A stretch of 64,000 nucleotides of DNA. Origin: a virus. Of the stretch, positions 3,001-20,786 are shown one piece after another. Positions within the stretch are counted from its first letter, which is position 1. The number at the start of each line of letters is the position of its first letter. The position numbers were made by a program, and so were the translations under genes. The notes under the pieces are model-generated. The model did not search any database. It had not been told where the DNA came from and was given only the letters and a program-made list of their open reading frames with translations. Location: positions 28,714-92,713 of IMG/VR virus record IMGVR_UViG_3300042691_029560; one strand, written 5' to 3'.

Positions 3001-4004
3001 GGCGTACCCATACCGCCTTCTCCAGCAGCAACCATACCAAGATCAATCATCTCCCAGTCTTCTTCTGGAATTGATCGGGCAGCTAGCATAGCTTCGTCTT
3101 TATCTAGGTCAAAAACAGAAACTTTTCCATAAGGACTACTTGCAAGTCTTGCTGCCATCAGTACAGCAGACGAAGGATCTATTAATATATGACTTTTTTC
3201 TATGCCGTCATCTTCAAAGTCAAGCTGCTCGTCATAGTCCCAAACATCGTGGTCAACATTACCCATGTCATCCCAGCAGTCGTTATCCCAAACGTAGACT
3301 TGCCCATCAATGTCAACTTTGTATAGACGATCTAATCCAGACCCATCCAAACAAACTCTAGCCATAAATTCTGGGCCATAATTTTCTTCCAAGTCAAAAG
3401 CATTTTTAAATGGATCAACTGGATTTTGAGACATTAAGTATCCATCAGCTTTCATAGCTTTAGGATCTGCGTGCTCTACAATGTCAGCGGCCCAACGCCA
3501 AGCGGAATCCCCGCCCCACAGCGCCCACGCTATTCGTCCGTTAGAAGGGAAGTTGTCTTGGCCAGGCTTCCAACCCTTACCCTTTTTGTCAACTTCGTGA
3601 CGCGGGAAATATTTTGCTATATGGCGGACTTTTTGTAGACCTATCTGTCCGCCGCGAGCCAAGATACGAGCAGTGTTAAGGCCAACAGGAGTGCCGCCAC
3701 GCTTGTGCTCTTTACGCCACTCAAGTGCTTTTTTAGCTTCAGCCTGAGCAGCTTTAGGAATTGTATACATACGTCCAGCAGCAGCTGTTATAGATTTTGC
3801 ATCTAAAGTTTGGAGTGCTATATTAGCAAGAGATGCTTCATTTGAGTAAAGATTCCGATCGGCTTTTTCCCATTTTCTAGAAGAAAATAACTCCTCGGGA
3901 ACACCTGACTCAACAACCATGTTGAAGTCAGTATCGACAACTACACCATGATGGTCGCTCGTAAATAGGAGCTGAGACCCAGATTGGCCGATTAATGTGA
4001 TCAT
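1..4004 (-). CDS. Capsid maturation (prohead) protease, multidomain, >1330 aa; 3' end lies beyond the window
   Basis: Not in the ORF track (no stop in window). Manual translation from ATG 4004 (MITLIGQSG...) is in the same frame wherever I checked down to base 1. Actinophage protease motifs LPLLWQ..SDGHNGSVVVGRID..GVSADMD..TMVPKPAF and GRVFGHIAAW..SGDWRPI..QVNVPGFP; accessory head motifs GRIAWALWGGD, GDWTRCVRQL..GYCALRH, YPIRNEEDLKNAIQAFGRA. Confidence 0.85.
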   Translation of the reverse strand, partial: MITLIGQSGSQLLFTSDHHGVVVDTDFNMVVESGVPEELFSSRKWEKADRNLYSNEASLANIALQTLDAKSITAAAGRMYTIPKAAQAEAKKALEWRKEHKRGGTPVGLNTARILARGGQIGLQKVRHIAKYFPRHEVDKKGKGWKPGQDNFPSNGRIAWALWGGDSAWRWAADIVEHADPKAMKADGYLMSQNPVDPFKNAFDLEENYGPEFMARVCLDGSGLDRLYKVDIDGQVYVWDNDCWDDMGNVDHDVWDYDEQLDFEDDGIEKSHILIDPSSAVLMAARLASSPYGKVSVFDLDKDEAMLAARSIPEEDWEMIDLGMVAAGEGGMGTPGYTSKERSANVAKQPRAAGGRFGSKGNTGKTTAGKQSVAPGQQGATPQGAEASKGKPGGISLEEQRKRAESGLPPQEILEGPLDTSGILGEPRTPIDRPNARISGTLPAMTKEDLHQVLYDFPAWVQSQRASYSPGDYKTPMTSAGDEKEERIESYDHPLLKKWRASKQRDEMQPETDNNWASPVVASAMVAAPNTPAEIAEAQKPATDAVTETQKDEAKPEGAPKSSPTPKDPGKPVQLTPETSDVQPLYFAIVAPDDPQAVLDLVSMVPASSTSTAPMIYRRLDKKWVRDEKTLSDLKSATPPPVVPLDSATLNDVLKQVDGITASAAYLQYEMMVLWGPREEILVAAGGLDRNRGNAEELRRYWTVGKGGLKIRWNTKGDWTRCVRQLEKYLGPRAKGYCALRHKEMTGMWTGDKRHREMYGRKGRGGNKAMFSSDVIKSSEMVINSLELLARSNNAKQRLGLLAAAPLVAGGSGSSFRIPLVIPEGKETGDGRTFRKGSITMRELPLPLLWQVRTSDGHNGSVVVGRIDRMERTEEGIGNAFGVFDTGEYGREAERLVRNGFIRGVSADMDQFEAEEEKKKSDSKAKTENDIDIDDDKKVGGDKLTINKARVMAITMVPKPAFQECKIFLLEEANPQEESMIPKDGIYAEDLDSPESASLVACAVVAGAIPVVPPAEWFNNPKLSKPTPITVTDDGRVFGHIAAWNVDHIGLVAGTKPPRSKSNYSYFHTGVVRTANGKDVPVGQLTLAGGHAPLEASALDAVKHYDDTASAIADVHAGEDAHGIWVAGGLRPSATPEQVRALRASAPSGDWRPIRGSLELVAVCQVNVPGFPIARARVASGAVMALVAAGARPLAELKASELYGPDAQVAAAKARFDAFRSERAAVLSARSAELSNKVYGYVDNFAITKAERDAAVKKRQALPDGAYPIRNEEDLKNAIQAFGRAKESERNKVRRHIMRRAKALGKTDLIPEKWHKQHVASTSESITASTQPNE

Positions 4005-4063: not shown

Positions 4064-4234
4064 CTATTCTGGTTTACCACGGTAGACGCCGTTTTCATCA
4101 ACTTCATCGGAGTCGTCTTCATAATCCGGAACCGGATTTCCAATGATTCTAGCCATAAGAGCCCAGTATTCTGGGTCATCTTCTGTGTATTGCTTAGGCA
4201 TATCTGGGTCTTCTGGCATTTCTTTTTCAGCCAT
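4064..4234 (-). CDS. 56-aa acidic hypothetical protein
   Basis: ATG 2 nt after the upstream stop, preceded by GAGGAG; MAEKEMPEDPDMPKQYTEDDPEYWALMARIIGNPVPDYEDDSDEVDENGVYRGKPE. Confidence 0.7.
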   Translation of the reverse strand: MAEKEMPEDPDMPKQYTEDDPEYWALMARIIGNPVPDYEDDSDEVDENGVYRGKPE

Positions 4235-4236
4235 TT

Positions 4237-7200
4237 TTACTCCTCATCTTTGGATTCATCAGTAGATTTTTGAACAGCGTTTCCAATACTATATCCGTCC
4301 AGAGGGCTCCAGTCTCCGAGCTCTGTCCCAAGAATATAGTCTACAGCTTTTTGAGCCTGGCTAGTTGCGCTAATGATCTCATCTGGGTTAGATTTTAGGT
4401 GCTTTAGCCAACTTTGAACGTAAGCTGCACTATTATCAAATACTGCATCAACGCCAAACATATTACCTAGAAGAGCGGCTCCAATTTCAGCAATAAGTTC
4501 TTCTCTAGCTCTGGACTCTAGATCTGTTTCATAGTCTTTAGTTAGATCTGATCTATCTAAGCGATTTGGATGACCAGTGCTGTGTACCAGCTCATGGGCA
4601 ATGGTATCAAACAGATCTTCAGGAGATTCAAACTGCTCTAGATTAGGAAGGGTCACTTGGTCAGAGATAGTTCCCCAGCTTGGTGCTTGGTGAGCACCGC
4701 CAACTCCAACGTACTTGTGAGTGACGTTAGGTGCTTTTCCAGTTCTAGCGGCCATAGCTTTCTTGTATCTTTCAACAATAAACTCTTGTGCATCCAGTGG
4801 AGTCATCTTAGGAAGAGATTCTGTAGAAAGATCAGGCAAGTTTAGACCATCAATCTGTTCAGCATTGAATACTGCCATAGCTTTGAACATGGTGAATGAT
4901 CTAGTCTTATTTGGGTCTTTCTCATCCTTTTGGACTATACGCATAGGAACAAGAATGAATGTACCCTTCTCACCCTTACGGACTTGACCACCCATCTGCT
5001 CTGCCTGCTTATAGGTCATCCATCTAGGATCGCTGTACCCGTTTTCTTCTTGAGCAAATCTAAGTGCCATTGCGTTAACACCAGAGTAGATATGCTTAGA
5101 AGATGGGTTTCTAGGCAGACCCATACCAGCGTACTTTTCGCCTTCTTTATAAGGTTTACGCCAAGGAGTCTCGCCCTGCTTAATCTTTTCAAACAGGCCG
5201 GCCATAACTTTTTCTGTGGCAGTTTTGCTGTCAGAAACGACTTTCTTACCAGTACGACTCTTACCACCAGGCTTTTGAGCAAAGCCAGTTATTTCTGGGT
5301 TTTCATCAGATCCCGGGGTTCCAGGCGGATAAGCAGAAGGAGCATCCTCTGGTCTTAAGTTCGTGTCAGGGTTCCAGCTACGTGGGCCAGGATATCCTGG
5401 AACACCAGCCTGCTCCATCATGTCAACAGAGCTGTTAATCCATGGAGGAAGAACATCATTACCTAGTACAAAATCTACAGCTATCTCTGCTTCGGCCATA
5501 GCTTTAGTTATTTCAGCGTCACTTAAGCGGTGAGATTTTAGGTACTCAGCTGTTCTATTTGGATCATGGTTAATTCCTAGACGCTGTAGTAACAGCTGTG
5601 ATGCAATTTCAGCCACAGCTTCTTCCCTAGCTCTTTGCGGATCGGTAACACCTCTTCCAGCAAGATGGCCTTCTCTTCCAAGTCTACGTCTAGTTCCGCT
5701 AGCATGGGCAAGTTCGTGGAATAGACTGTATAGATAATCCTCCGGACTATCGTACTTACTTCTATCCGGAAGCCTAATTGATTCAACACCTTCACTTACA
5801 GACCAGAATGGAGTTATAGGTTTTCCTTTATTAGGTCCTTCTTTTGTCTCAATACCAATCAGATCTTCGTAGACCTTTAGTCTTCCAGATCCACCACGCT
5901 TCTTTTCAGCTTCAGCAAATCTACCAAGAACGAATTCCAAAGCCTGAGAAGCTGTCATTTTTTGCTGCTGCTTAGGGTTGTATGGCTCTAATCCATCCAT
6001 CTGAGCTGCGTTAAACACAGTCACAGGAGTCTGAACAAGTACACGTTCTCCGGTATCCTCGTTTTCAATAGTGCGGAATGTCATAATCCGAACACCCTGC
6101 TCACCATCACGTATCTTTGCGCCCATTTTTTTAGCCTGAGCTACAGACATCCATCTTGGATCTGTATATCCTCTCTCGGCTGCAGCTGCGGCAAGTGCGT
6201 GGTGGTTTATACCACTGTATTGGTGCTCTGAAGATGGGTTGAATGGCATGTTGCTAGGATTAACCGGAGCAGACATTGGGTCTTCAGCAGGATACTCAGA
6301 GTATGGTTTGTCGTAATCACCTGTACGATATGGCCTAGGGTTTTTAATACGCTCACGGAAAATGTCAAGCATCTTGGCTGCAGCTGATTTATTATCAGCT
6401 ACGGCTTTAGCTTTCTTTTCTTCAAAAGTTTTAGCTGGAACGGTTTCAGATGGAAGCGTTTGAGCAAAGCCATCTACATCTTCACCGCCCCTAATTTTGT
6501 CATCTTTTAGTGCAGCGTCTGCAGCATCTAAATTATCAGTAAAGTCTTTAGCAACCTTATCAACGGTAGGAGCTTCAATAGCTTTTGGAGTAGCTGGTTT
6601 CTTTGGCTTTAGATCTTCTGGGTGATTTTTCTTCCAACGATCTTTAGCAATTCTTGCAGCAAGTTTTGCTTTCTTAATTGCAGCAGATAGCTCAGAGATA
6701 GCAGCCATCTTCTCTTCAACGCCCTTAGACTTCTTCAAGTTGTCGATAGCTTTTTGTAGATCGGCTTTGACGTAACGCATGTTGTTTACGAATTCGCCGA
6801 CGTTGTTTACATCTTCACGAACCTTGGAGGTCTTACCCTTCCATTCGTCAAATAGACCTAGGGCGTTGCTTAGCGAAGCTATAGCCTCTAAAATACGGTG
6901 AGGACGCTTAGGTTGTTTTCCACCAAGCTGAGCAAATCCAGCTTCATCTACTCCAGCAGGAAGTATTTGAGTGTTTTTACCTGGAGTTTGTGCAAAACCT
7001 ACGTTATCTGACTTAGTGTTGTCAGGGGTCTCTACTAGGTCGAGCTCTACAGTTAAGTTTCCATTTGAATCTTCTTTAACTGAAGTAACCTTAAATTTTG
7101 AATTTCTTGGTAATATAACTTCATCTTCAGCGTATCTAGATAATGCAGACCCCATAGAATATCCGGTTAATTTAGATCCTTTAGGCGAAAGTGCATATGT

Positions 7201-9557
7201 TATTGATTTGCCAGTAAGTCGATTTCCGGTGAGTGCCTGTACAGGATTTACAAATAAATCAATCGAGTTTAAATCTGTAGAAGTTGACATAAAGCCAGGG
7301 TCAATAAATTCAGCTCCAGGGACTAAAGCCTTTTTAGCTTTTTCAAAGTCATCTAGTCCCCTACGAGATTCACCAAGTGTAACTACTTTTCCATCACTAA
7401 AAAACTCTCCTCTAAACAATCTAGAAGCTATTAGGGGATTTTTTGAAGTTAAAGAGTCTAGCCCACGGACTACAGATTCTTGATCTTTAGGAACAGGTGT
7501 ACCAGTCCTTAATGCTTTATTTATAGGTATATAAGCTGCACGAGTGCTATATTTTCTAGCAGCACTTGACTCATCTTTTGTAATAACATCTTTTGAAGAT
7601 AAGCCTTTAGACAGATCTGCTGGTGGAGTAAATGTAGATTTTCTAGCTTTAAGTTGTCGCCAATCAAAATCTCCGGACTTCATTTTAAAGAAATCGTTGT
7701 CAGATAGGAAATAGTATCCAGCCTGAATTACGTCAAACGTATCTGCATTTTCTTCATCTTCTTCATCAGCATCTTCATCAAAAATAGATTCGTTTAGACT
7801 AATACGATACAGTCCAGTGTTAGAGTCGGATGGATTTCCGGTTACTTGATCAAGAGTAATTCCTGTAAACTCTGCTTCATCACTTCCAAGAACTTCTTTA
7901 CCGGGTTCTGCATACCTGCTAGTTACTGATCTATTCAAATCCTGAAATCCTAGGGGAAGAGTGTCACTGTCAATAGACACATTAAACTTAGTCTTGTCCC
8001 CACGTTTTAAAGTTTTATTTTCCAGTGTTACTGTTCTGCTACCGTCTGAAGACTCTACAGACTTTCTAGAAGACTCTAATTTTTTATCTTCTTCGGCAGC
8101 TTGCTCACGTAGTTTTTGTCGTAAATCCTCTCTAGCTGCTTGTAATTTTAAAAATTTTGAACTATTTGTATATTCTCTAGTGTCTTCATAAGACACGTAA
8201 TCATCAATTTCAGCACCTTCAAAAGGTTTTTTTGGATCAGCATTAAGCCTTTTTTCTAAAGATTCTTTAGTTACAATTGCATATTCCGGAGCTATTCGCT
8301 CTGCTTCAACAGCTTCCCACCCAATATCATCTCCCTCTTGCATCTCGTATTCTTCTTTAGACAATCCATTTTCATCTAATTCAACAGGGTAGTCGTTATC
8401 TTTAAATTCTTCGGTTCTAAAAATAAATTTATCTTTGTCTTCTTCTTTACCAGTGATGTCAAATAAAGTTACTCCAGTGTACCTAGATGGAAATCTTTCT
8501 AGCCTAGGTTCTTCACCAAAACCAATATCGTCACCGAGATAGTCTGTGAATCCAGTGACTCCCTCAAAATGTTTTTCATAATCATCTAGCCCGGTGCCCG
8601 ACTCATAAGATCTGTCAAGTGGATACCAATCTCCTGGATTAATTTTGTTTCCGGAAGATAGAGTTATAGGAGTGTCTCCAAATACATCTCCCTGTACCTT
8701 GTTAAATCCAGGTTTTCTAGGTTTAGAAAATTTTCCTTCTTTTTGAGCAAAGCCGTCGTAATCAACGGTGTCGAACTCAGCGGTTCTAAGCATGATTTGA
8801 CGTTCAGCTTCTTTAAAAGCTTCACTTGCGTCAATTCCAAGATCTACTTTTTCTTTAGGCTTGTCGCTAAAAGTAGCGGTAAATCTGCCACCCTTTTCCA
8901 AAATGTCGGTGACTAGACCGTTTTCCTCACGAGTCCAACGACTAATGTCTTTTTTAGCGTCTTTCTCTGTAGTAGCATCTACAAACTTACGTTCCGCCGC
9001 TGTTTCATTGAACTTGCCGGCTCTTTCAGATCCAGCTGCTTGTGCAAATCCTTCAGAGTCTTCTGGAAGAAGCTCAGAATCAAAAAATACATCTCTCGGC
9101 AAGATAGTATCTTGATTTTCAGCAATTTTATCTAGCTTTTCTCTAGGAGCTACATATTTTCCGACTCTTCGAAGTTGAGTCTCATTTCCCGGAGAATCTT
9201 GAGAATTTACAATTCTTACTGGGACATACTCGACTCCGGCTTTACGAGCCGCGGCTAGTCTATGGTTACCTTCAGTAATAAATGCTTTACCATTTTTAGG
9301 GTTGAGCACTACTATAATTGGCTCTTTAAAGCCGATGCCTTCTTCTAGATCTTTGGCAATGCTGTCTACCGTACTCTGCTCACGAATCTCATTACCTTCA
9401 GCTCCAATTAGAGCTTTGGTATTTACGTACTGAACTACCGATTTTCCATCAGATTTATAATCTTGTAGGTTAGGATTATACTTTTTACTGTATTCAGCAT
9501 CTACCTCTGTACTAGGTGTCTGTGAGAACCCACGGTCCCCCTTTTCGGGGGTTACGC
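4237..9557 (-). CDS. Polyvalent-protein-like frame: ParB/Srx-like domain, ADP-ribosyltransferase, two ArdC-like (ssDNA-binding + HExxH) domains; probably expressed as a -1 frameshift extension of 9552-19577
   Basis: Frame stays open ~250 nt upstream of the tracked GTG 9309, with no ATG, to the slippery site. ParB motif GFKEPIIV..ITEGNHRLAAA; ART motifs LFRG / GFMSTS / EDEVILPRNSKF; ArdC motifs YSGxN..WM(S/T)xxQA..GE(Q/K)G..VFNAxQ with HELAH and HELVH. Confidence 0.85.
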
Positions 9558-9564
9558 TTTTGGG
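9537..9564 (-). other. Programmed -1 ribosomal frameshift signal
   Basis: In-frame X XXY YYZ heptamer C CCA AAA (9564-9558), spacer GCGTAA containing the 0-frame stop, then hairpin CCCCC-GAAAA-GGGGG (9551-9537); the downstream ORF is in the -1 frame. Confidence 0.85.
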
Positions 9565-12500
9565 GAGTTCGCACCTCTACGCTTTAGAGTATCAATAAGT
9601 CTTTGAATCTCGTCAGCAGACTTGCTGTTCAGGTTCGTGATTCCAAGCTTACGCTTCTCTGCAGAAGTCAGACCAAGAGAGTTAGCCAGATCCTTGACAC
9701 GCTTAAGTTGTCTAGGAGTTGGCTTACCGGTGTCGACGCCAGCCTTAGGGTTTAGAGCCCTAAGTTGTCCAAGCATTGCACCCATCTGAGCCTTAGTCAA
9801 GTTTTTACTTGATAGGGCATCTTGAATTGCAGTAGCTAGTTCTGGATCGATGCCGTCTCTGTTGCCACCAAGTTCCTTGAGGTAGTCATACTGAGCGTCA
9901 GTAGCTGGCTCACCCATCTTAGGTGATACAACTGCGTTGCCAGGTTCTTGAGAAAAGCCGTCAGAATCATCATTAACATCATCATAATAACCTCGGCTGT
10001 TTTCAGCATCTTCATCAACAAGATCGCTGTTGTAGTAGTCTAGCTTTTCATTAGCAAATGCTAGGGCTTCTTCTTTAGAACCAAAAGTCTGAGAACCTTC
10101 GTCATATTGGAATTCTGCATCTTTATCCATGTATTGATACGAGTGATCTACTTCCCACTCACCGTCGCCCTTATACCAGACCTCAATCTGACTGTCAGAG
10201 TAAGGGTCTGTAGTATAACCACCATCGCTGTTTTGACTTAGTTTGTCATCCCTAACTGGAGTGCCTTTTCTGCCAGGTTCTTGGGCGAAACCACCCTGAT
10301 CTTTCTTACGGTTTTTCTTATCTAGAATTCTCTGAGCACGATCTACAAAATCACTAAGAGCATATCTAAACTCATCTGATACTCTAGCATCACCAAAGTC
10401 CTCATAAAGCCTTGCCATTCTATCGATAAACTCTTGCTCAGTACCATTTTCAATAGCTGTTGAAAGTTCTTTCTCTAGATTTGCTTCCGAGAAGTTTTGA
10501 GATAGATTTGAGTTATAGTCAGCTGCTTCGTTAGCTGCCCACTCAATCGCGTCATCGCGGTCATCAAACTCTTGCCTATCATACGCAGAATCTCCGCTAT
10601 CAGAACCATAAGTAATTCTAGCTTCGTACTTACCATTCTCGTTTGGCTCATTGTCAATGTTGATTTCTGCTCCACCGCTTCTGTAGTCTCCCCAGTAACC
10701 ATCATCTGCAGCTTCTGCAATCTTATCGGCATCTGTTGAATAGTAAATTTCTCTAGCAGTAGCCATTTCATCTTCAACGTCAGATAGATCTAAGTTTCTT
10801 AAATCGTCAGGATCTCTAAGAGCTGCTCGTATTCCAGCACGATCTTCAATTCTCTTAATAACTTGATCTCTCAGGTTATCGAGCTCGTCTGCCAAACTAG
10901 AGTCACTAGAATTATCTCTTCTAAGTCTAGATACAACATCTTGAAGATCGGAAGCAAACATGTAAGACTGCTCTACAGCCCAGTCTTTACCATATTTTTT
11001 ATTGTCTGGATTGTCTGGATCTGACTCTGCTAACATTTCTCTCAAGTTGTCGCCGTCTAACATAAGGAAAGTGTCCTCATTTGCAGCGTCAAGTCTTCTT
11101 GCAAGCTCATCAATTCGCTCACCCTTTAGAGAGTTGTAGTAAGCATCCATCTCACCAGCAACTTCGGCAGGTCCGCTTTCTGTAAAGTCGTCACCAGCAC
11201 GGTCGCGGTTGAACTGCTCTTCTCCAGGAATGCCTGGCTCCTGAGCAAAGCCGATAGTCTCTGGACGATCCTTCTTTCTACGAAGCTTGTCGTTTAGAGC
11301 ATCTACTTCAGCACGGTTCATGTTTGGTAGGTTGTCTAGGATGTCCTTGACTTCTTCTGGAGTTAGGTCCTTGGTCACAAGCTTGCTGTTCAATGACTGA
11401 AGAGCACGGTCGCTTGGCTTGTTAGGGTCGACGCCCGGTTTGAACGGAGCATCACGCATAGGGCCAATAAGTGCACTCATCTGTGCCTTAGTTAGGTTCT
11501 TGTTCGCAAGAGCTTCTGTAATTGCCTGAGCAGTTAGGTCGTCAGCTGGAACTCTTTCATCAGCGTACTCTTGTAGAAGAGCATACTGAGCAGGAGTTGC
11601 AGGTTCCATCTGCTTAGCAGACAAACCTCCAGTTTTTTCCTTGTTTTGCTTCTTATTGCCGTCAGCAATCTGCTTACGTAGCCATTTCTCGGCTGCCTCT
11701 GGACTATTGAATGATTTACTAGTAGTATTTCCTAGTCCATTTCTATTTTCAGGATTAGCGTATTTAGCAAACCATCTGTTAGATTCTGTACCGTCTTCAT
11801 TTTTATAGACGCCATACCTAACGTCAGATATGTTACCGTTGGCATCTTTATAAACTACGCCTCCTACTTTATCGACAGACTTAAGATCTAAAGCGTTTGG
11901 GTCCTCTTCTAATAGATCGGAACCGGTTCCTGGTTCTTGGGCGAATCCACCGCTCTTATCTTCACGGAAGAAGTCATAGTCTTCACCATTGTTTAGACCA
12001 ATCGTATCAAACCATTCACCAGGTCCAAAGCCTGATTCTTTGTCTGCTTCTAGGAATAGCTTATAAGCTAGTACTTCACTATGGTAGCGACTAGGTTTTT
12101 CAATAGCTCCCTTAATCTCTCTACCGTTGTACCCATTAGCAACTGCCATATCAGCAATTAAATTGTAATAGCTGTATGGATCACTTTCGGCGAGACCATT
12201 TAGATAATCATCGTTGTAGCTCATAGCATTTTGTACTAGATCGCTAAGTTCTTCATTGTCATAGTCACCAGCAAGTTCAGAAAGTTTTTCCGAATCAAAA
12301 TAACCATCGTCTTCTGCGCCAAGAGCACTTAAAATTTTATTAGCATCTTCTTCGCTCTTTGAGAAAAGATCTTTGTTAATTTTATCTTGCTCGTCCCAGG
12401 CATTCTGTACGTCAGATGCAAGGCCGGCAAGTTCACCATCTTGAGGAAGGTACTTAAATTGCTTAGATCTTGCAGCCCAACCAAATTGAGCTTTTTGTTG

Positions 12501-15500
12501 TTGAAGATCTCGGATTTCATCTCTATTATCAGATTTATCAATTTTACCCTGAAGAATATCTTCAGCTTCTTTGACAGCTCGATTTACTTTATCACGTATT
12601 GGCTTATTAGCTGCTTTAGGAGTAAAATCAATTCTACCCTTTGGATAGTTTGTCCAAGCATAGTTTTTAGCTGGCTCTTCGCCACCAGGACGTTGAGCAA
12701 AGCCTTCACCTTCAGAGCCAAAACCAATCTCGTTTAGCCAGTGATCATTGTTCTGATCCTCAGCCCAGGTGTTCATTTCTGCGTCAAGAACATAGTCATG
12801 ATAGTTATAAGGTTTCTCAATCATACGTTTGAACTCAGATGGGCTTGCATTTATAGCTTCAGCAGCATTCGCAATTTTGTAGAAGTATTCAGCAGGATTT
12901 GTACGAGCTAAATTGTCTAGGTAGTTTTCATTTAGCTCTTTAATTTCCTGAGCAGCTTCGTAGTCTTCATCATCCTCGTCTAGACCGCCGTCTTCAATAA
13001 AAGCATACTTCTCAACAAGTCTCTTAGCTAGAGCTTTGTTCTTTGCTCTAACTTCTGGGCTTGGTCCGTTTCCAGGTGCTTGACCAAAGCCTCCGTAATC
13101 AAGATCGGCAGCGTAATCCTCTGCGTCCTGATTTACTTCCATACTGTTGTAGTAATTAAGTTTTTCGTTAGCAAATGCTAGAGCTTCTCCCTTAGTGTCG
13201 AAGGTCTTAGAGCCTTCGTCAAACGGCAACTCTCCTCTAGATTTGTCCATGTGAATGAACTGGTGGTTTACTTCCCACTTACCGTCATTGGTAGGGTTGA
13301 CTTCAATTTGACCTGGCTCACCAAAAGTAGTGCTAAGAGAACCGTCGTCACTCGTAATCAATTTGGAATTGTTTATAGGAGTATATTTTCTGCCAGGTTC
13401 TTGAGCGAAACCTCCGGACTCAAGATCAGCGGCGGCATCTTCTGCATCTGAGAATACCTTGTCACCGTTGTAGTAGTCTAGTTTTTCGTTAGCAAATACA
13501 AGAGCTTGCTTTATAGAATCAAACTTCTGAGAACCTTCGTCAAATGCAAACTCATTTCCAGAGCGTGCCATGTGGTTGTACGCGTGGCTTACTTCCCATT
13601 TACCGTCATCAGTAGGGTTGACTTCAATTTGCTTGTTAGAAGTTGGACTAGTACTGTAACCACGATTGCTAGTTGGCTGTAACACTTCTGGTTTGCCAGT
13701 TGCTTGAGCGAAGCCAGCTGCAGGAGATTCTCCGTTAGCGTCTCTAAGAGCTCGATCAATAGCCTCAACAGCGTCTTGTTTAGCCTTAAGTGGGTCACCA
13801 AACCCTAAGTTAGCTTTATCAATGTCTTCGATTGCTTGTCTAATTTCATCTTCGTAGTCTGGAACAATGTCTACAGGCTTACCATCGAAGGTGACCACAA
13901 GGAAATTACCGTCAGGATCTCCTTCTACGACTACCTTTAGGCGTCCGTCTGCAGAAGTAAAGTTTCCGCTTCTATCCCAGAGATCAGGATTGTCAGCTGC
14001 CTTACGGTCAATCTTAGGAGTGTAGCTAATTGAAAGATCTGCACTCTTGCCAACCTCAGCAAGAAGCTTGCCCATCTCGCCTTTGGTTAGGGCCTTGTTA
14101 GCAACGGCTTCTTCAACCATATCGCGAACGTCGGTTGGAAGTTTTTCACCTTGGTTATCTAAGATACCCTGAAGCTTGTTGTACTGTAGGGAGCTAGCTG
14201 GGTCTTTAGTCCAGGCTGGTGGCTCGTCGCCAGGTTCTTGAGCAAAACCGCCCATCTCGTCTGGAGACTTTCTAGCGTTTCCTTCAAGTTCTGAGAACAG
14301 ACGTTCGCCGTCTTCAAGTGCCTTGTCTAGATTATCTGTAGGTTCACCCTGGCCCATAATTTCACCATTACGGTTGTAGGCGATAGGGGTAATCATACCC
14401 TTGTCTTTTTCTAGACGTACAATTCCACCATCTTCTGTTTCTGCAGTAGCAGCAAAGAAAATATCACTATCTGGATATAGAAGGAATTTTCCGCGTTTAT
14501 TTGAAGACTCACCAGGCTTTTGATCAAATCCACCGGTTTGCTTCTTTAGGAATTTGTCAACTAAAACACCTACGTCTTTTGCTAGGTCTGCTGAATCGTA
14601 GCCCCAACCAATGTAAGGAAGCTCACCAACCCATTCGCCATCGTAAGATACAGAAATACGAGATAGGTTTGTACCACCAAATCCCATGTCTGGTTCTCCA
14701 TCTGCCATTGACTCAAGAGTCAATCTTCCATCTGGAGACTTGTAGGTAGCGTCATTACCGCCTTCAGGATCTCCGAACCAGTGGCTTAGGTTGGCAATGT
14801 GAGCCTCGTCAACTCCACCAGCTTGGCCGGCTGATTGGGAGAATCCTTCGATATCATCGGTTCTTTCACCGTACTTGATATTCGGTCCGCCTCTAAGAAG
14901 TTCTTTAAGATCCGAAACAATTTCTTCTGCTTCTCTTTCAACACCTTCAGGCTCCATGTCTGGGTATCGAGAACTATCGTCAACTAAAACAAAATTCTGT
15001 ACGTAGCCAATTGGTTTTCCATCATAACTAACTTCCCAGTCTCCACCTTCTACATAGGCAGAAGCAGCTCCTTTATTGGTTTCATAGTCATAATCACCAG
15101 ATTTGTCTACATATTTTATTTCAAGTTTTCCGTCCTTAGACTTCCACTCGTCTCTAAAATCAAAACTACTGTCAAGTTCACCAGAATAGTCTTTGGCTAA
15201 GTTACGTCGCTTAGGACTGCTATTAAGGTGCTTTGAGATTACATTCTCAATTTCATCAGCATAGTCGTCAATATCCATGAGCTCGATTGGTTGAGAGTAT
15301 GGTCTATCGATGTATCTAACAGGCTGTCCATCTTCTAGATCTATAGTATATTTTTCCCCATCAACAGATACTTCTAGATAAGATGTATCGACTGCAGGAT
15401 CATCTGCATAATAGCCAGCATCAGCGTCTCGGACGTAAGTAATCTTAATTCTTCCATCTCTAGAAACCCAGGTACGGTCCTTAAATGCTTCGGCAGACCA

Positions 15501-18500
15501 GTTGGCGTCTTTAAATGCGTCTACTGGAAGCTTATATTTTAGAGGCTCATCTTCTCCAGGCGCTTGAGCAAAACCTTCAATGTCATCTTGACCAGGAAGA
15601 TCTGCTAGAGAAATGTCATTTGCAGCCTTTTCTGCTGCACCAATGCTCTTGAAGTTTGATGACGCACCTAGTTCGCCACCATCCTGAGAAATTGGAGTTA
15701 CGTCCCAGGTACCATCGCCCTTAGGTGTGTAACGCATCATCAAACCTTCAGAGTTTTTCTTCAATAGGTTTGGACTTGCGTCTTCCCAGCCGTTGGTGTC
15801 TGGCATACCCTTTAGACGAGTAATGAGATCTGAAGCTTCATCCTTGGTCATCTTTGGAAGACGCTTGCTTAGATCAGCGGCTTCTTTAGCAGGAAGACCC
15901 TTAGAAATTAGACCACGGCGGATAGACGCTAGTTGTCTATCTGAAGGTACGTTGGTGTCAACGGCCTTTCGCATCTCACCAATTACGGCACCAATTTCGC
16001 CCTTAGTTGCTTCTTTGTTTGCAAGAATATCTTGCATAGACTTACGAAGTTCTTCTGGAAGTTTGTCACCCTGCTTTTCTAGGATGTTAGCTACGAATCC
16101 ACGCTGGGCATCGGTTGCTGGGTCAGAAGATTTTCCACCCGGTTCTTGACTGAAACCAGGCATTTGATCATAACCTTCAAAGCCATCAACGTCATAGTAA
16201 TCCCGATCATTTGATTTAGCTTGAGCGTTACCAAAAGCTTCGTCAAGCGCACCTATTTTTCCGTCTTCACCTTCACCATAGTTTTTAGGGTCATAGCCAT
16301 CACTAAACTCGCGCTCTTTGTCACCACCAAATGGACTTTTAACGAGACTACCACCTACAACATCAACAGTACCGTCGGAATACTGAGTTATCTCAGCTGA
16401 ACCGGCGTCACCTTCGTAGAACCAAACACGTTTTCCTGCTGCTTTATCGGATTCAGACGTTATTTCTTTGAAGTCTTTTCCGTAAGCCTTAACAAGATCG
16501 TCAACGGTATTAATTTCTGGTTCATTGCCAGGTGCTTGATAGAAGCCATCTCTTTCCCAGTCTTCAGGACCCTCTGGTGGCTCTGGTGGATCGTAGTCAC
16601 TCTCTCCAGCACCAAATATACCTGCAATATCGTCCATGGAAGAGCCCAAAGGAAGTGACTCATAACTAGTGTCTACATCTTGACTAGGTGGCTCATCCCA
16701 GCCTCCAGGATTGTATTTACCGGCAGTATATTGAGTTAATTCGGCTGCTCCACCAGGATAAATTTCTAGTTCTGCGTACTTGTAGTTATCTTCACTACCT
16801 AATGTTAGAAATATCACACCATCATCATCAGGGAATACATCTCCTGAATACCCGTATTCCTCTGCAAGATTTTTAATAGCAGCTAACTCTTCATCAGAAT
16901 AAAAAGAACTCTCAGAAGACCCATTTTCATAGTCGTCATATTTTTTAAGTTGAGCAGCGATTACATCGTGGTACTTAGCGTATTCAGGGTCCTCTAGCAA
17001 AGATTTCATTGCTTCTGCATCTAAATCCTTGAAAGACGTAAATACTTTAGCTTTTAATCCACGGTTGTACTTAATTTGCTCAATTTTGGCCTCGCGAGCC
17101 TTTTTTACATCTGACTTAAGTGGTTCTAAGCCATCTTTTTCACGTTTTTTATTTTTTGGAAATGCAAAGATTCCTTCTATATCATTCTGGGATCTTAAGT
17201 TATAACCATACTCACTGCTTAAAACACCAACACCAATGGTGTCTCCACTGTAGTACCTTTTACCAGCATTTTCTCCTTCGGTAATATTTATTTCAAAATT
17301 ACTCGGGTTAGGATTATTTTCTTGTCCACTCCAAGGCGTATATACAATCTCGTGGCCATAAGCTGACCATTTTCTAATGCCTTTGGCAGCATCTTCGGGG
17401 GTGGTAACTTCTACTGCATCATACTTTTTTGCAAAATCGTCAAGATTAATATTCTCCCCACCAGGTGCTTGATCATAGCCATAAAAATCGCGATTGTCGC
17501 GATCCTCGTCGTATGTGTCTGGCTCATCATCAGAATTATCGTAGTTTTCATAACCCTCATCCATCAGTCCAGCTAAGTCGTCTAAGCTAGAACCGGCTGG
17601 AATACTATTTCCATCACTTCTAACGTCAGCATCTGCTGGGCTATCCCAGGATGCTGCATAACGCTTTGCAACATAAAAGTTTTCTAGGTCTGCGGATCCA
17701 TCTGCACGTACAATTAGCTCAGCCCATGCGTCTCCAGCGTCATCGCCTTTTACTAGAGATATATATGGTTCTTCTCCTAAATATTCACCTCTAGGTAAGC
17801 CGTAACCAAACTCATCCATTAATTTTTGAATATCCTCGAGTTCTTTATTTGTCCAGTACGGGCTATCAGCTTCCCCTGCTTCATATGCCTTTGCTTTTTC
17901 TAACTGCTTACTAGCATAATCATGATGTGCCGCATATTCAGGATTGTCGAGTACTGACTGGATCTGCTCAATAGATCCAGTATTAATTCCACGATATGCG
18001 CGAATTTCAGCTACATCTTTAGGGGATATTCTTTGAGCTTTTGATACGAGCTCTTCCGCATTTGCAATTGCACGATCTTTTAGTTCGGTGCTTTCATATG
18101 CTGCGTTTTTCTTGTTTTCCAGATTTTTTTGTAGTGCTTCTACGTCGCCAAATCGAACAGCTTTTTGTCGATCGTAATATGATTCAAAATTATTGTAGAA
18201 TTTAGGATCACCGTATTCAAAAACACCATAGTCGTACTCTTTCTCACCAGGAGCTTGCTCGAAGCCTTCATTATTTTCTAATAGATCCTTAGGAGATAGT
18301 TTTTTATTTCTGCCAGGTTCTTGAGCGAAGCCCTTAGCTGGCTGCTGTTTGCGTAGACGTGCTTTTGCTTTTGGAGCCTTACCCTTACCAGAGTCATTAT
18401 CTGCGGCAAGCTTTTGAAGGTTTGCCCATTCCTGAGCGTAGCCAACAAAATCTCCAAATTCATCTGACAAAGAAAGTACAGGTTTGTTTGAATCATATGA

Positions 18501-19577
18501 GCCATCAGGACCAGCACCAATAAATTTTGAGCCCGAAGGTGCTTGCTCGCCGGATGGAAGAGTTGAAACAGAGTAGCCGTCTGCAGACGTAAAGGTGCCA
18601 TCACCATTGTCAGTCCAACCAGTTGGAGCAGACTTGCGGTTTGCTAGAAGTTCTTGTAGTGGAATTGCGTAACGTGAGTTTTTAGAGTCTGCCTTAAATG
18701 CTGGAGCTTCTCCAGTTCTAAGAATAGCTTTTAGACCTTCTACCTTAGATGCAGGAACAGAATAGATACCTGATGGAAGATCGGCTCCTCCTCCAGAAAT
18801 TTCAACTTCAATCCTGTCGCTGTCTTGTGGGTTACCAGCAAACTTACCAACGAACGACTTAATCATGTCGCCAATCATGGCAAATATACGAGATCCACCA
18901 CCCATCTCAGCAAATCGACCCTTACGGTCACGACGTTGCAACTTGGCACGTGCAGAACGTGCTGCTGAAGAGTTATTTCCAGCGAATGGGTTTCCGATAC
19001 CAAAAGCAGCGGTAATTGCTTGAATCTTAATGTCTGCTGGAACAGAAGCAGTTAGTGCCTCTAGACGTGCAGCAGCGTAGATGCTCTTGCTACTTCTTGG
19101 CTGTTGAACAAATGCCTCAAAGACTGCTTTACGTACAGACTCGTCAGTGATGCGTGGGTCGTAGGAAACCCAAGCAGCATTACGGACGCGACGTGCAGAT
19201 GCAGTAATCGGGCCAACGGTTTTTGTTGAGTACGGGTGAGCACTAGGGAGTAGGTCCCTAAACTCTACTACCGGAGCTTTATTGGAAGCCGGACCGTCGA
19301 TAGCGTAGTCAACAAAATTGGTTACTTCACGCGCAGCGTGGAAGAAAATGTCTCGAGGGTCTTCGATGTCTAGTTTGCTTGCAATGTAACGATCTGTGTA
19401 GTTAAGAACGTCTTTTAGTGCTACTTGTCTTACCGAGGCAACTAACGCGTTTCTTTCAACAACGTAGTTTATAACGCCTCTCTTAAAGATCTGCTCACTC
19501 TCGGTGACAGTTATTTCTAGATCTTTTTCACTTAAGCTCTCTAGAGCAGCAACTAGGGGATTCAAATTTTCACTCAC
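9552..19577 (-). CDS. Giant acidic modular protein (3341 aa), probable internal head/ejection polyprotein
   Basis: Lies between portal/Dps and the protease; 18 G[FY]xQxPG-type motifs separate internally duplicated modules; N-terminal DLLPxxHP and RRDRKGRF motifs. Confidence 0.8.
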   Translation of the reverse strand: MSENLNPLVAALESLSEKDLEITVTESEQIFKRGVINYVVERNALVASVRQVALKDVLNYTDRYIASKLDIEDPRDIFFHAAREVTNFVDYAIDGPASNKAPVVEFRDLLPSAHPYSTKTVGPITASARRVRNAAWVSYDPRITDESVRKAVFEAFVQQPRSSKSIYAAARLEALTASVPADIKIQAITAAFGIGNPFAGNNSSAARSARAKLQRRDRKGRFAEMGGGSRIFAMIGDMIKSFVGKFAGNPQDSDRIEVEISGGGADLPSGIYSVPASKVEGLKAILRTGEAPAFKADSKNSRYAIPLQELLANRKSAPTGWTDNGDGTFTSADGYSVSTLPSGEQAPSGSKFIGAGPDGSYDSNKPVLSLSDEFGDFVGYAQEWANLQKLAADNDSGKGKAPKAKARLRKQQPAKGFAQEPGRNKKLSPKDLLENNEGFEQAPGEKEYDYGVFEYGDPKFYNNFESYYDRQKAVRFGDVEALQKNLENKKNAAYESTELKDRAIANAEELVSKAQRISPKDVAEIRAYRGINTGSIEQIQSVLDNPEYAAHHDYASKQLEKAKAYEAGEADSPYWTNKELEDIQKLMDEFGYGLPRGEYLGEEPYISLVKGDDAGDAWAELIVRADGSADLENFYVAKRYAASWDSPADADVRSDGNSIPAGSSLDDLAGLMDEGYENYDNSDDEPDTYDEDRDNRDFYGYDQAPGGENINLDDFAKKYDAVEVTTPEDAAKGIRKWSAYGHEIVYTPWSGQENNPNPSNFEINITEGENAGKRYYSGDTIGVGVLSSEYGYNLRSQNDIEGIFAFPKNKKREKDGLEPLKSDVKKAREAKIEQIKYNRGLKAKVFTSFKDLDAEAMKSLLEDPEYAKYHDVIAAQLKKYDDYENGSSESSFYSDEELAAIKNLAEEYGYSGDVFPDDDGVIFLTLGSEDNYKYAELEIYPGGAAELTQYTAGKYNPGGWDEPPSQDVDTSYESLPLGSSMDDIAGIFGAGESDYDPPEPPEGPEDWERDGFYQAPGNEPEINTVDDLVKAYGKDFKEITSESDKAAGKRVWFYEGDAGSAEITQYSDGTVDVVGGSLVKSPFGGDKEREFSDGYDPKNYGEGEDGKIGALDEAFGNAQAKSNDRDYYDVDGFEGYDQMPGFSQEPGGKSSDPATDAQRGFVANILEKQGDKLPEELRKSMQDILANKEATKGEIGAVIGEMRKAVDTNVPSDRQLASIRRGLISKGLPAKEAADLSKRLPKMTKDEASDLITRLKGMPDTNGWEDASPNLLKKNSEGLMMRYTPKGDGTWDVTPISQDGGELGASSNFKSIGAAEKAANDISLADLPGQDDIEGFAQAPGEDEPLKYKLPVDAFKDANWSAEAFKDRTWVSRDGRIKITYVRDADAGYYADDPAVDTSYLEVSVDGEKYTIDLEDGQPVRYIDRPYSQPIELMDIDDYADEIENVISKHLNSSPKRRNLAKDYSGELDSSFDFRDEWKSKDGKLEIKYVDKSGDYDYETNKGAASAYVEGGDWEVSYDGKPIGYVQNFVLVDDSSRYPDMEPEGVEREAEEIVSDLKELLRGGPNIKYGERTDDIEGFSQSAGQAGGVDEAHIANLSHWFGDPEGGNDATYKSPDGRLTLESMADGEPDMGFGGTNLSRISVSYDGEWVGELPYIGWGYDSADLAKDVGVLVDKFLKKQTGGFDQKPGESSNKRGKFLLYPDSDIFFAATAETEDGGIVRLEKDKGMITPIAYNRNGEIMGQGEPTDNLDKALEDGERLFSELEGNARKSPDEMGGFAQEPGDEPPAWTKDPASSLQYNKLQGILDNQGEKLPTDVRDMVEEAVANKALTKGEMGKLLAEVGKSADLSISYTPKIDRKAADNPDLWDRSGNFTSADGRLKVVVEGDPDGNFLVVTFDGKPVDIVPDYEDEIRQAIEDIDKANLGFGDPLKAKQDAVEAIDRALRDANGESPAAGFAQATGKPEVLQPTSNRGYSTSPTSNKQIEVNPTDDGKWEVSHAYNHMARSGNEFAFDEGSQKFDSIKQALVFANEKLDYYNGDKVFSDAEDAAADLESGGFAQEPGRKYTPINNSKLITSDDGSLSTTFGEPGQIEVNPTNDGKWEVNHQFIHMDKSRGELPFDEGSKTFDTKGEALAFANEKLNYYNSMEVNQDAEDYAADLDYGGFGQAPGNGPSPEVRAKNKALAKRLVEKYAFIEDGGLDEDDEDYEAAQEIKELNENYLDNLARTNPAEYFYKIANAAEAINASPSEFKRMIEKPYNYHDYVLDAEMNTWAEDQNNDHWLNEIGFGSEGEGFAQRPGGEEPAKNYAWTNYPKGRIDFTPKAANKPIRDKVNRAVKEAEDILQGKIDKSDNRDEIRDLQQQKAQFGWAARSKQFKYLPQDGELAGLASDVQNAWDEQDKINKDLFSKSEEDANKILSALGAEDDGYFDSEKLSELAGDYDNEELSDLVQNAMSYNDDYLNGLAESDPYSYYNLIADMAVANGYNGREIKGAIEKPSRYHSEVLAYKLFLEADKESGFGPGEWFDTIGLNNGEDYDFFREDKSGGFAQEPGTGSDLLEEDPNALDLKSVDKVGGVVYKDANGNISDVRYGVYKNEDGTESNRWFAKYANPENRNGLGNTTSKSFNSPEAAEKWLRKQIADGNKKQNKEKTGGLSAKQMEPATPAQYALLQEYADERVPADDLTAQAITEALANKNLTKAQMSALIGPMRDAPFKPGVDPNKPSDRALQSLNSKLVTKDLTPEEVKDILDNLPNMNRAEVDALNDKLRRKKDRPETIGFAQEPGIPGEEQFNRDRAGDDFTESGPAEVAGEMDAYYNSLKGERIDELARRLDAANEDTFLMLDGDNLREMLAESDPDNPDNKKYGKDWAVEQSYMFASDLQDVVSRLRRDNSSDSSLADELDNLRDQVIKRIEDRAGIRAALRDPDDLRNLDLSDVEDEMATAREIYYSTDADKIAEAADDGYWGDYRSGGAEINIDNEPNENGKYEARITYGSDSGDSAYDRQEFDDRDDAIEWAANEAADYNSNLSQNFSEANLEKELSTAIENGTEQEFIDRMARLYEDFGDARVSDEFRYALSDFVDRAQRILDKKNRKKDQGGFAQEPGRKGTPVRDDKLSQNSDGGYTTDPYSDSQIEVWYKGDGEWEVDHSYQYMDKDAEFQYDEGSQTFGSKEEALAFANEKLDYYNSDLVDEDAENSRGYYDDVNDDSDGFSQEPGNAVVSPKMGEPATDAQYDYLKELGGNRDGIDPELATAIQDALSSKNLTKAQMGAMLGQLRALNPKAGVDTGKPTPRQLKRVKDLANSLGLTSAEKRKLGITNLNSKSADEIQRLIDTLKRRGANSPKA

Positions 19578-19667: not shown

Positions 19668-20786
19668 TTAACCGTGTACGAAATAGCCTAATGCAAATGC
19701 AAGAGCTGTATTAAATCCAGACTTGCCCTTAGACTGCCCGTAGATCCAAGCATCCTTGATCTGGCTAACGGCTTCATAGCCTTTTCCAGAGAATTCAGCA
19801 ATATCTAGGACTGCATCATCATTACGCTTGTACTCGCCAGGCTTTCTAACAGTTACGGTTAGACCGTTTTTAACTGCAGCTGAAGCCACAAGTGGGTCAA
19901 TGCTTAGGGCCTTAGGGTGAGTATGAGGCAGCAAATCAGCGTCATCGGTTGAGAATGTTGTTAGCAACTTCTCACTACCAATCTGAGACAAGAAGTTCTG
20001 TACTCGGCTAATTGCAAAGCGGTGGCGGGTTGTGCCTTCGGACATTTCACCAGCGTACTTTCTAGCTCCACGGCGGTAAACGGTCTTGCACTTAGCAAAA
20101 GTAGTCTTTAGGCCATCCTGAGCAGAAGCGTTGTAGTTGTCAACAAGTGATCGCAGCTCTGCTTCAACGTTGGTTGGAAGCACTAGTTCGCGAGAACGTC
20201 CAGATGCAAAGAATGCAGTTCCGTCTTGGTCATAACCATCTAGGAATGCAAGCTCGTCGTCCCAGCCGTCCTGAGAAATTGGAACTATAGGAGACTCAAC
20301 GTCAACAATCATAATTGTGCTAGTCGATGGGACCTGCATTCCTAGAGTTGCAGCCAACTGCCACTGCCACTTCTGGTGCATGTCTATTCGCTCGGCAATA
20401 AAGTTTGCAACTCCCTGCTCATTGCAGCCATTTGCACAGTCAAAAGTCTGAACAAGGTGAGAGATAAGTTTACCGTTGACGTCAAGTAAAGACGAAACCA
20501 TACGAGTCGGGTCGCTAGAGATTATCTTCTCTGGAACACAGGTCGCAAGGTCGTTGAACTCTGACATCATAAATGGAGCGTCAAAGCCGAGCTTGCGGAT
20601 GTTCTCCGCCAGTGGGTCTAGCGATCCAGATACGTCTTCGTAAATGTCGCCAAAAAACTCGTGGAACTCTCTGAAGTCCATGCCTTTGACGTTCCAGTGA
20701 TAGCCGTGAGAAACGTGATACATAACAGCAGCGTTTGCAAGTGCTGTAGATAGCTTGTCTCTTAGATCGGTTTTTGAGTGAGTCAT
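19668..20786 (-). CDS. dps: Dps/ferritin-like domain fused to a phage head-associated domain
   Basis: HWNVKG..FHEFF..Y..DPLAENIRKLG..HQKWQWQL ferroxidase signature; C-terminal KTVYRRGA..FAISRVQNFL..DLLPHTHP module. Confidence 0.85.
   Translation of the reverse strand: MTHSKTDLRDKLSTALANAAVMYHVSHGYHWNVKGMDFREFHEFFGDIYEDVSGSLDPLAENIRKLGFDAPFMMSEFNDLATCVPEKIISSDPTRMVSSLLDVNGKLISHLVQTFDCANGCNEQGVANFIAERIDMHQKWQWQLAATLGMQVPSTSTIMIVDVESPIVPISQDGWDDELAFLDGYDQDGTAFFASGRSRELVLPTNVEAELRSLVDNYNASAQDGLKTTFAKCKTVYRRGARKYAGEMSEGTTRHRFAISRVQNFLSQIGSEKLLTTFSTDDADLLPHTHPKALSIDPLVASAAVKNGLTVTVRKPGEYKRNDDAVLDIAEFSGKGYEAVSQIKDAWIYGQSKGKSGFNTALAFALGYFVHG

Follow-up and report, generated by a model that had tools for sequence, protein, structure and literature searches.

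Candidate peptide tags at the module junctions of a giant phage polyprotein and their co-distribution with ArdC-type metallopeptidase units

Introduction

Polyvalent proteins, which are widespread in phages and plasmids, were described in phages and conjugative elements as proteins organized around a zincin-like metallopeptidase (MPTase) hub (Iyer, Burroughs, Anand, de Souza, Aravind 2017, J Bacteriol, PMC5512222). That study proposed that the MPTase processes such proteins autoproteolytically, a view current since 2017, although no site was defined (PMC5512222). Here, we describe a giant protein from an uncultured lake phage of Actinobacteria, encoded on the minus strand of IMG/VR record IMGVR_UViG_3300042691_029560, in which 25 copies of a seven-residue peptide, G-F-x-Q-x-P-G (hereafter, the tag), separate the modules. 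The window, meaning the whole stretch of DNA analyzed, covers 64,000 nucleotides (bases 28714-92713 of the 92.7-kb record, which was judged 54% complete). The closest named phage is the metagenome-assembled Actinomycetia phage DSL-LC01, and large Microbacterium, Arthrobacter, and Gordonia phages are further off.

The window protein shares with known polyvalent proteins the combination of many effector domains (ParB-like, ADP-ribosyltransferase [ART], ArdC-N, MPTase-PolyVal) in a single polypeptide whose gene lies among the late virion genes, and it likewise unites several unrelated effector and DNA-binding domains with a zincin-like MPTase hub. However, known polyvalent proteins contain 2 to 15 domains, and no junction peptide is described in PMC5512222 (the word "linker" is absent from the text), whereas the window protein has about 25 modules, most of no known family, together with an explicit seven-residue tag and a peptidase predicted to be added by frameshifting. 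A literature search (full text of Iyer 2017; otherwise titles and abstracts) found neither polyvalent proteins fenced by tags nor an ArdC module preceded by a frameshift. The DdrB and DarB proteins of phage P1 are large, head-packaged anti-restriction proteins, and DdrB, which carries a C-terminal MPTase, has been found processed in heads (PMC5512222); unlike the window protein, they have neither a repeated tag nor a frameshift, and processing there occurs once, at a site that is not defined.

The ArdC protein of the IncW plasmid R388 (PDB 6I89) provides the closest structural reference for the peptidase units. It consists of an N-terminal ArdC-N domain that binds single-stranded DNA and a C-terminal gluzincin with an HExxH motif and a Glu helix, and it is a free-standing plasmid protein of 297 residues with no known protease substrate (Gonzalez-Montes et al., 2020, PMC7213743). 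The window units have the same order, ArdC-N and then gluzincin, but they form a tandem pair that closes a giant phage protein, with a conserved candidate-substrate tag ahead of them.

Cargo processing by T4 gp21 (acting on IPI-III and Alt), phiKZ gp175, and SPN3US gp245 offers another comparison: on both sides, head-module cargo is probably packaged with the DNA and processed at short motifs, although in those phages the proteins derive from separate genes and the motif of 2-3 residues is common to capsid and scaffold proteins (PMC5694885, PMC10052503). The window locus instead encodes a single polyprotein whose seven-residue tag occurs in no other head protein and co-occurs with a zincin in cis; the motif is not shared with the capsid or protease proteins and does not follow the protease across relatives.

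In retroviruses, a -1 shift directed by a slippery heptamer and a downstream structure yields Gag and Gag-Pol, a short abundant product and a long protease-bearing product with a common assembly domain, and the protease cleaves defined junctions. The resemblance to the window locus is one of function only, without homology. Retroviruses use an aspartic protease where a zincin is found here, the host of the window phage is bacterial, the modules are not capsid parts but presumed anti-host effectors, and the frameshift has been lost in one relative.

A repeated seven-residue tag at module junctions

The giant protein is encoded between the portal and capsid genes by two reading frames, ORF A and part B (ORF, open reading frame), which together would give a fusion of about 5113 residues with the following parts:

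9552..19577, minus strand: ORF A, 3341 amino acids, the zero-frame product (N-terminal anchor, then about 18 small, mostly acidic, tag-separated modules)
18444..19577, minus strand: conserved N-terminal anchor domain, residues 1-378
4237..9576, minus strand: trans-frame part B, 1779 codons open (ParB-like domain, ART domain, and two ArdC-N plus zincin units)
9193..9456, minus strand: ParB-like domain, frame-B residues 41-128
7018..7590, minus strand: ADP-ribosyltransferase domain, PF03496, frame-B residues 663-853
5287..6279, minus strand: ArdC unit 1 (ArdC-N-like plus zincin), HELAH at 5704-5718
4240..5220, minus strand: ArdC unit 2 (PF08401 ArdC-N plus PF18818 MPTase-PolyVal), HELVH at 4582-4596

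A domain scan of part B returned a ParB-like domain, ADPrib_exo_Tox, two ArdC-N domains, and two MPTase-PolyVal domains, with family E-values of 2.8e-49 for PF08401 and 1.1e-44 for PF18818. Both zincin units retain HExxH together with the Glu that follows it downstream (an alignment of 38 sequences shows no variation at H596, E597, H600, and E628), and both ArdC units are modeled by AlphaFold at a predicted local distance difference test (pLDDT) score of 70-92, with a model mean of 70.9.

Translation of both frames revealed 18 tags in ORF A and seven in the downstream frame. The ORF A copies follow the pattern G-[FY]-x-Q-x-[PAT]-G; 16 of the 18 fit the strict form G[FY]xQxPG, and the other two read GFSQSAG and GFAQATG. 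All copies are given below, with reference where needed to the close relative G001 (IMGVR_UViG_3300032334_001128, 126 kb):

18312..18332, minus strand: GFAQEPG, residue 416
18246..18266, minus strand: GFEQAPG, residue 438
17460..17480, minus strand: GYDQAPG, residue 700
16527..16547, minus strand: GFYQAPG, residue 1011
16137..16175, minus strand: double tag GYDQMPG-FSQEPG, residues 1135 and 1141, one Gly in common
15555..15575, minus strand: GFAQAPG, residue 1335
14826..14846, minus strand: GFSQSAG, residue 1578
14511..14531, minus strand: GFDQKPG, residue 1683
14229..14249, minus strand: GFAQEPG, residue 1777
13695..13715, minus strand: GFAQATG, residue 1955
13392..13412, minus strand: GFAQEPG, residue 2056
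13071..13091, minus strand: GFGQAPG, residue 2163
12684..12704, minus strand: GFAQRPG, residue 2292
11928..11948, minus strand: GFAQEPG, residue 2544
11232..11252, minus strand: GFAQEPG, residue 2776
10272..10292, minus strand: GFAQEPG, residue 3096
9939..9959, minus strand: GFSQEPG, residue 3207
9511..9531, minus strand: GFSQTPS, fusion residue 3350, 12 residues past the shift site (relatives have a tag in the matching place)
9031..9051, minus strand: GFAQAAG, fusion residue 3510
8734..8754, minus strand: GFAQKEG, fusion residue 3609 (start of a 604-residue block missing from G001)
6979..6999, minus strand: GFAQTPG, fusion residue 4194
6919..6939, minus strand: GFAQLGG, fusion residue 4214 (end of the block missing from G001)
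6451..6471, minus strand: degenerate GFAQTLP, fusion residue 4370 (GF[AS]Q[ST].. in close relatives)
5266..5286, minus strand: GFAQKPG, fusion residue 4765 (disordered linker between the ArdC units; ancestral tag position in tandem-ArdC proteins)

The downstream-frame copies thus run GFSQTPS, GFAQAAG, GFAQKEG, GFAQTPG, GFAQLGG, GFAQTLP, and GFAQKPG. Tags at frame-B residues 16 and 176 flank the ParB-like domain, one at 860 follows the ART domain, and those at 1036 and 1431 stand ahead of the ArdC units. A 26th match to the pattern, GYAQEWA at residue 379, lies inside the conserved N-terminal domain and was not counted as a linker tag.

The relaxed pattern is matched 24 times in the fused protein, against a mean of 0.27 and a maximum of 3 in 2000 shuffles. 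When all ORFs of at least 80 codons in the whole 92.7-kb record were scanned with a position-weight matrix, 24 sites in the giant protein scored 15.6-26.6 bits, and no site outside it, including those in the capsid protein, protease protein, portal, and Dps, exceeded 6.9 bits. Codon usage within the tags varies (GGC, GGT, or GGA for Gly; TTT or TTC for Phe), with Pro and Gln biased toward CCT and CAA, and the six identical GFAQEPG copies have 15-20 of 21 bases in common. The tag is therefore conserved at the protein level, and a nucleotide-level repeat or recombination site was rejected on the grounds of this codon variation. A search of IMG/VR with a degenerate DNA pattern for GFAQEPG returned approximately 80 single matches, consistent with chance, and the only multi-copy contigs were the two already known. 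Ribosome skipping of the 2A type (xPG) was rejected as well because the residue after the final Gly is variable rather than Pro; to our knowledge, 2A skipping is known only on eukaryotic ribosomes.

Conservation, disorder, and module exchange

Across the window protein and two relatives, the G, F, Q, and G positions of the tag are 76-86% conserved, compared with 17-58% for positions within 30 residues on either side. These four positions carry 3.4-4.8 bits of information, and positions outside the seven tag residues carry less than 0.9 bits; the only informative tag positions are G, F, Q, P/A, and G, flanked by hydrophilic sequence that is not conserved. When residues 1141-2300 were modeled with AlphaFold, all nine tags fell in coil at local pLDDT minima, with mean values mostly of 22-30 for the 10-residue blocks holding tags and 60-76 for neighboring blocks; given the low overall confidence of this model (mean pLDDT 44.5, from a two-row alignment), only the relative pattern of coil and confidence was used. 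The tag between the ArdC units likewise lies in a linker with a pLDDT of about 30 in the two-unit model. The tags are thus seven-residue islands of conservation in variable linkers, predicted to be disordered, at every module boundary.

Comparison with relatives indicates that modules are gained and lost at the tags. Nineteen of the 24 relaxed-pattern tags align with tags of G001, whose ArdC region is 79-80% identical to that of the window phage. The 604-residue ART-domain block missing from G001 (window 6940-8733; fusion residues 3617-4220) extends from just after the tag at 3609 to the tag at 4214, and, conversely, a block of about 120 residues in G001 (3104-3223) with no counterpart in the window spans its tags at 3111 and 3224. 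In more distant relatives, homologous modules start exactly at their tags, and half of the modules have no counterpart there.

Several of these features had been anticipated in an earlier note prepared from the sequence alone. Its count of 25 copies (18 in ORF A, one just past the shift, and six further downstream) holds, and the codon comparison bears out its statement that codons vary while the peptide is conserved. The domain positions agree with its placement of tags between modules, flanking the ParB-like and ArdC domains and at the C-terminal edge of the ART domain. The note had also raised the questions of whether the motifs lie in disordered linkers and whether homologs gain or lose modules there; both find support, from the nine modeled tags in predicted coil and the predicted disorder of the inter-ArdC linker in one case, and from G001 and the more distant relatives in the other.

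A predicted frameshift joins the two reading frames

The junction of ORF A and part B carries the elements of a -1 frameshift cassette, namely an X_XXY_YYZ heptamer, a spacer, and a downstream structure, all of which are kept in relatives:

9558..9564, minus strand: slippery heptamer C_CCA_AAA, two codons ahead of the ORF A stop
9537..9551, minus strand: hairpin CCCCC-GAAAA-GGGGG, directly past the stop codon

ORF A ends in TCC CCA AAA GCG TAA, and a 6-nt spacer that includes the stop leads to CCCCC-N5-GGGGG. The -1 frame is open from five codons upstream, and the ParB-like domain is reached before any plausible start codon. The same cassette (C_CCA_AAA or A_AAA_AAA, one codon, stop, CCCCC-N5-GGGGG) occupies this junction in all nine relatives examined (from loci L147-L156), with invariant stems, variable loops, a shift that is always -1, and a tag 10-25 residues past the cassette; the relative P0002 ends at the same ...SPKA stop. 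In G001, both parts are fused in frame as a single ORF of 4801 amino acids. These observations support the view that the two ORFs form one translational unit, and the comparative evidence is strong for a programmed -1 frameshift with predicted products of 3341 and about 5113 amino acids. The in-frame fusion of G001 also carries an extra segment of approximately 135 residues.

Co-distribution of the tag and ArdC units

When one ArdC unit was used as a query for longer proteins, about 1000 relatives were retrieved. In tandem-ArdC proteins (units 47-58% identical), GFDQ, GLDQ, GYLEQ, or SLDQD is found about 20 residues before the second ArdC-N domain, and further copies stand at ParB, ART, and ArdC junctions. 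For example, P0034 carries tags at 112, 405, and 817, which lie around its ART domain (237-393) and its ArdC-N domain (at 827). Altogether, 46 tandem-ArdC polyvalent proteins contain 74 tag copies, against 11.9 expected from shuffles, and when patterns were counted de novo in six relatives, G[FL]DQ ranked first among the repeats of four (L149-L152).

The IMG/VR loci L147-L156 derive from true sister phages, with portals, capsid proteins, and protease proteins 66-72%, 65-75%, and 47-55% identical, respectively, to those of the window. Their layout is as in the window: the ORF directly upstream of the shift site contains 3-9 G[FL]DQ..G tags (DLDQ in L152), with one more tag past the shift site and one between the ArdC units; in L153, the upstream ORF is truncated and without a tag. 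Sister phages without ArdC provide the comparison. In DSL-LC01 (whole genome searched), L125, L133, L134, and L137, neither the tag nor any other repeated peptide was found, and these ArdC-less sisters have portals 70-76% and protease proteins 49-58% identical to those of the window phage, with a capsid-protein fragment about 70% identical in DSL-LC01. The giant ORF abuts the protease gene in L125, L133, L134, and L137.

On a portal tree, phages with both ArdC and the tag form two separate, well-supported clades, and along lineages with an ArdC unit the tag drifts through the forms GFxQxPG, GFDQAPG, GLDQDA, and SLDQD. Judged from these comparisons, the tag is ancestral in two places, one in the linker of tandem ArdC units and the other shortly past the site of the frameshift. 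It follows the zincin and not the capsid, portal, or prohead protease, a correlation that extends over few evolutionary events.

Candidate mechanism and alternative explanations

The reading we favor, to which we assign a probability of roughly 45%, is that G-F-x-Q-x-P-G is a tag at which the protein's own gluzincin metallopeptidases of the ArdC type (Pfam MPTase-PolyVal) bind and cut. From the computed evidence, which comprises the tags with their positions and conservation, the frameshift cassette, and the way in which tag and ArdC unit occur together, we infer a scheme that spans frameshifting, packaging, cleavage, the scissile bond, and timing. Most ribosomes would stop at 3341 residues and produce a protease-free string of the anchor and about 18 small acidic modules, while some would slip by -1 at C_CCA_AAA before the GC hairpin and add the ParB-like domain, the ART domain, and two ArdC-N plus zincin units, for a total of about 5113 residues. 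Both forms carry the anchor and are encoded in the slot for head-internal proteins between the portal and the protease/capsid genes; therefore, the prohead probably takes up both. Once there, the long form's zincins would cut the tags in cis and in trans, either in the head or after ejection, which would free roughly 25 separate cargo proteins. Because zincins usually prefer a hydrophobic P1' residue, cleavage ahead of Phe or Leu (G|F-x-Q) is no less plausible than cleavage after Gln. The complete picture of an injected arsenal resembling Gag/Gag-Pol, in which the frameshift sets the ratio of cargo to protease, zinc proteases cut the tags, and one gene yields about 25 effectors, is offered more tentatively than the assignment of the tag itself.

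Several points weigh against cleavage by the ArdC-type zincins. Cleavage at the tags is a prediction, and the tag between the two units is not docked onto either zincin in the AlphaFold model of the two-unit region. The correlation of tag and ArdC rests on approximately two evolutionary events on the portal tree, and common descent with the ArdC cassette, instead of recognition by the zincin, could account for the spread of the tag. In L154, which has two intact HExxH units, and L155, which has one, tags are degenerate or missing. Since G001 lacks the frameshift, control of a Gag/Gag-Pol-like ratio is not universal. Moreover, R388 ArdC is the only ArdC studied in depth, and no protease substrate was found for it, its catalytic Glu is dispensable for anti-restriction, and its catalytic pocket is negatively charged (PMC7213743), whereas many tags carry Glu or Asp. 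Finally, pSa ArdC and TraC1 are transferred at full length (Iyer et al., 2017, PMC5512222). A complex prediction for ArdC unit 2 (38-row alignment) with Zn and a 40-residue GFAQEPG linker gave a score of 0.01; it was made without controls and counts neither way.

The earlier note had read the locus as a polyprotein diced by a phage protease and nominated the protease of ORF 1-4004, with viral 3C-like proteases as a further analogy. The junction-tagged polyprotein stands, but a prohead or 3C-like protease is unlikely to be the reader of the tags. Pfam and PHROG scans of the giant, protease, capsid, Dps, and other proteins of the 54%-complete record gave no 3C-like match. Cleavage in trans, by the prohead serine-protease-like domain of the next gene or by a host protease after injection, is unlikely in our estimation, even though the gene immediately downstream of the giant gene encodes a match to the PHROG family "head maturation protease" at residues 1008-1202 (E 1e-58). 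A language-model lead from the ESM Atlas points to Peptidase_S78/S77 for this protein, while no Pfam, NCBIfam, or PDB sequence match was obtained for it. That prohead proteases process proteins inside the head is well established (PMC5694885, PMC10052503), and the tags are disordered and conserved, as cleavage sites are. However, known prohead proteases read one motif in capsid, scaffold, and cargo, whereas the capsid, protease, portal, and Dps proteins of this phage hold no site above the 6.9-bit level. The tag is also wholly missing from ArdC-less sisters despite their similar protease proteins, and its oldest position lies between tandem ArdC units, in proteins that were found through the ArdC unit alone. 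With the tag absent from the other head proteins and from the ArdC-less sisters, and following ArdC-type zincins instead, the nomination of the ORF 1-4004 protease is not supported.

The tag may alternatively be left uncut and act as a multivalent short linear motif that docks onto the capsid interior, scaffold, portal, ArdC units, or a host protein. A short conserved peptide in disordered linkers suits a binding motif as well as a cleavage site, and tandem copies such as GYDQMPG-FSQEPG would raise avidity; nevertheless, we consider docking rather unlikely. Tagless relatives, with capsid proteins 65-75% and portals 66-76% identical (portals 70-76% in the ArdC-less sisters, and an approximately 70% identical capsid-protein fragment in DSL-LC01), speak against the capsid and portal as partners, and they weaken the version put forward in the earlier note, a docking motif for the capsid interior. 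Precedents for such docking are the cargo-loading peptides of encapsulins and the C-terminal tail of the HK97 protease. The tag does not follow the HK97-fold shell protein across relatives, as docking of the encapsulin type would have it, and it drifts together with the ArdC unit along lineages. A polyprotein would require the regular distribution of one tag per domain junction, with tags also past the frameshift site and between the enzymes, whereas tethering would require less. One further occurrence has been cited in favor of docking: in another viral contig, an unrelated, portal-like ORF of 735 amino acids ends in GFAQEPG-GIG-GFAQSPG. This ORF (L070:5575-7779, on the short contig IMGVR_UViG_3300032731_000802) is portal-like by eye only, and both tags lie in its Gly-rich tail; the pair may be due to chance or may hint at a portal role for the peptide. 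Very improbable, by comparison, is a passive boundary read by no protein, that is, a linker or hinge from duplicated cassettes or a landmark of recombination. Many modules are internal duplicates (at least five families), modules are gained and lost at tags, and CAA and CCT are somewhat over-used. On the other hand, synonymous variation is free at Gly and Phe, and 15-20 of 21 bases in identical peptides is too little for homologous recombination. Four positions are about 80% conserved against flanks at about 40%, in proteins with largely unrelated modules, and ArdC-less relatives join their modules through Pro-rich or untagged linkers, so that a specific peptide is not needed for mere linking.

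For cleavage by ArdC-type zincins, the locus and its relatives provide an explicit candidate site with 25 copies and natural variants (GFxQxPG, GFDQAPG, GLDQDA, and SLDQD), and the sister phages without ArdC and without the tag serve as matched negative controls. Were this reading true, ArdC-family metallopeptidases would act on the junctions of their own polyproteins, and the tag would work as a "cut here" code, portable and evolvable, with which phages could swap effector modules freely. One gene would deliver dozens of mostly unknown, acidic, cysteine-free anti-host modules, which would be loaded into the capsid and injected, and arsenals would diversify by cassette exchange at the tags. 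Tailed phages would then employ programmed frameshifting not only for the tail chaperone but also to dose a protease.

Anatomy of the giant protein and its gene neighborhood

The anchor (residues 1-378) is the sole part common to the giant proteins of 30 metagenomic relatives and phage DSL-LC01; a PDB profile search with the N-terminal anchor alignment gave no match. Its core alone also occurs in gp82 of the cultured Microbacterium phage Pumpernickel, and all anchor carriers are encoded directly after the portal. Pumpernickel gp82 (2235 amino acids; L177:5384-12091) opens with the anchor core NSSxARSxRAxLQxRDRxGRFxEMGxG ... GKFxG ... LPxGxYxV, and this phage, which has no ArdC and for that reason presumably no tag, could serve as a model for the loading of anchor-bearing giant proteins.

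About 25 modules of 94-585 residues each follow the anchor, together with three shorter tag-to-tag intervals of 6-22 residues. Most modules are acidic, with a net charge of -8 to -19 per 100 residues, and internal duplicates among them form at least five families. The fusion protein (5113 residues) and a 4801-residue relative (L013:640-15045) contain no cysteine at all, compared with 0-3 cysteines in ArdC-less giant relatives and seven in the neighboring protease protein. Searches of the 3341-residue part against Pfam, NCBIfam, and PDB sequences returned nothing except a marginal match to DUF2188, which is seen in three modules. Four other modules, at four places within window 9939-16157, have in common a helical unit of about 60 residues ("PATxAQxxYL ... 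LTKxEMxxLI") that resembles DUF3072 by eye and was not called by Pfam. In the ArdC-less metagenome relatives L120 and L127, modules are joined by Pro-rich, low-complexity linkers with PEVP 11-12 times and PxPxPxP 15 times.

The giant gene belongs to a siphovirus-type, minus-strand late operon with the order terminase, portal, Dps fusion, giant protein, protease protein, capsid protein, and tail genes:

25756-27168, minus strand: large terminase
20796-22556, minus strand: portal
19668-20786, minus strand: ferritin/Dps fusion, PF00210 at residues 10-149
3..4004, minus strand (runs past the window edge): next gene, first 1334 amino acids of a 1584-amino-acid protein, tag-free, with a prohead-protease-like domain at about 1008-1202

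Downstream of the 1584-amino-acid protease protein are genes for the major capsid protein, head-tail adaptor, major tail protein, and tape measure. The Dps fusion, encoded directly after the portal, has a C-terminal part of about 220 residues following its PF00210 domain. The fusion shows a weak likeness to the DLLPxxHP segment of the giant protein (31 residues, E 0.011), with a shared module unproven. The C-terminal part is kept in most relatives, many of which match that part alone.

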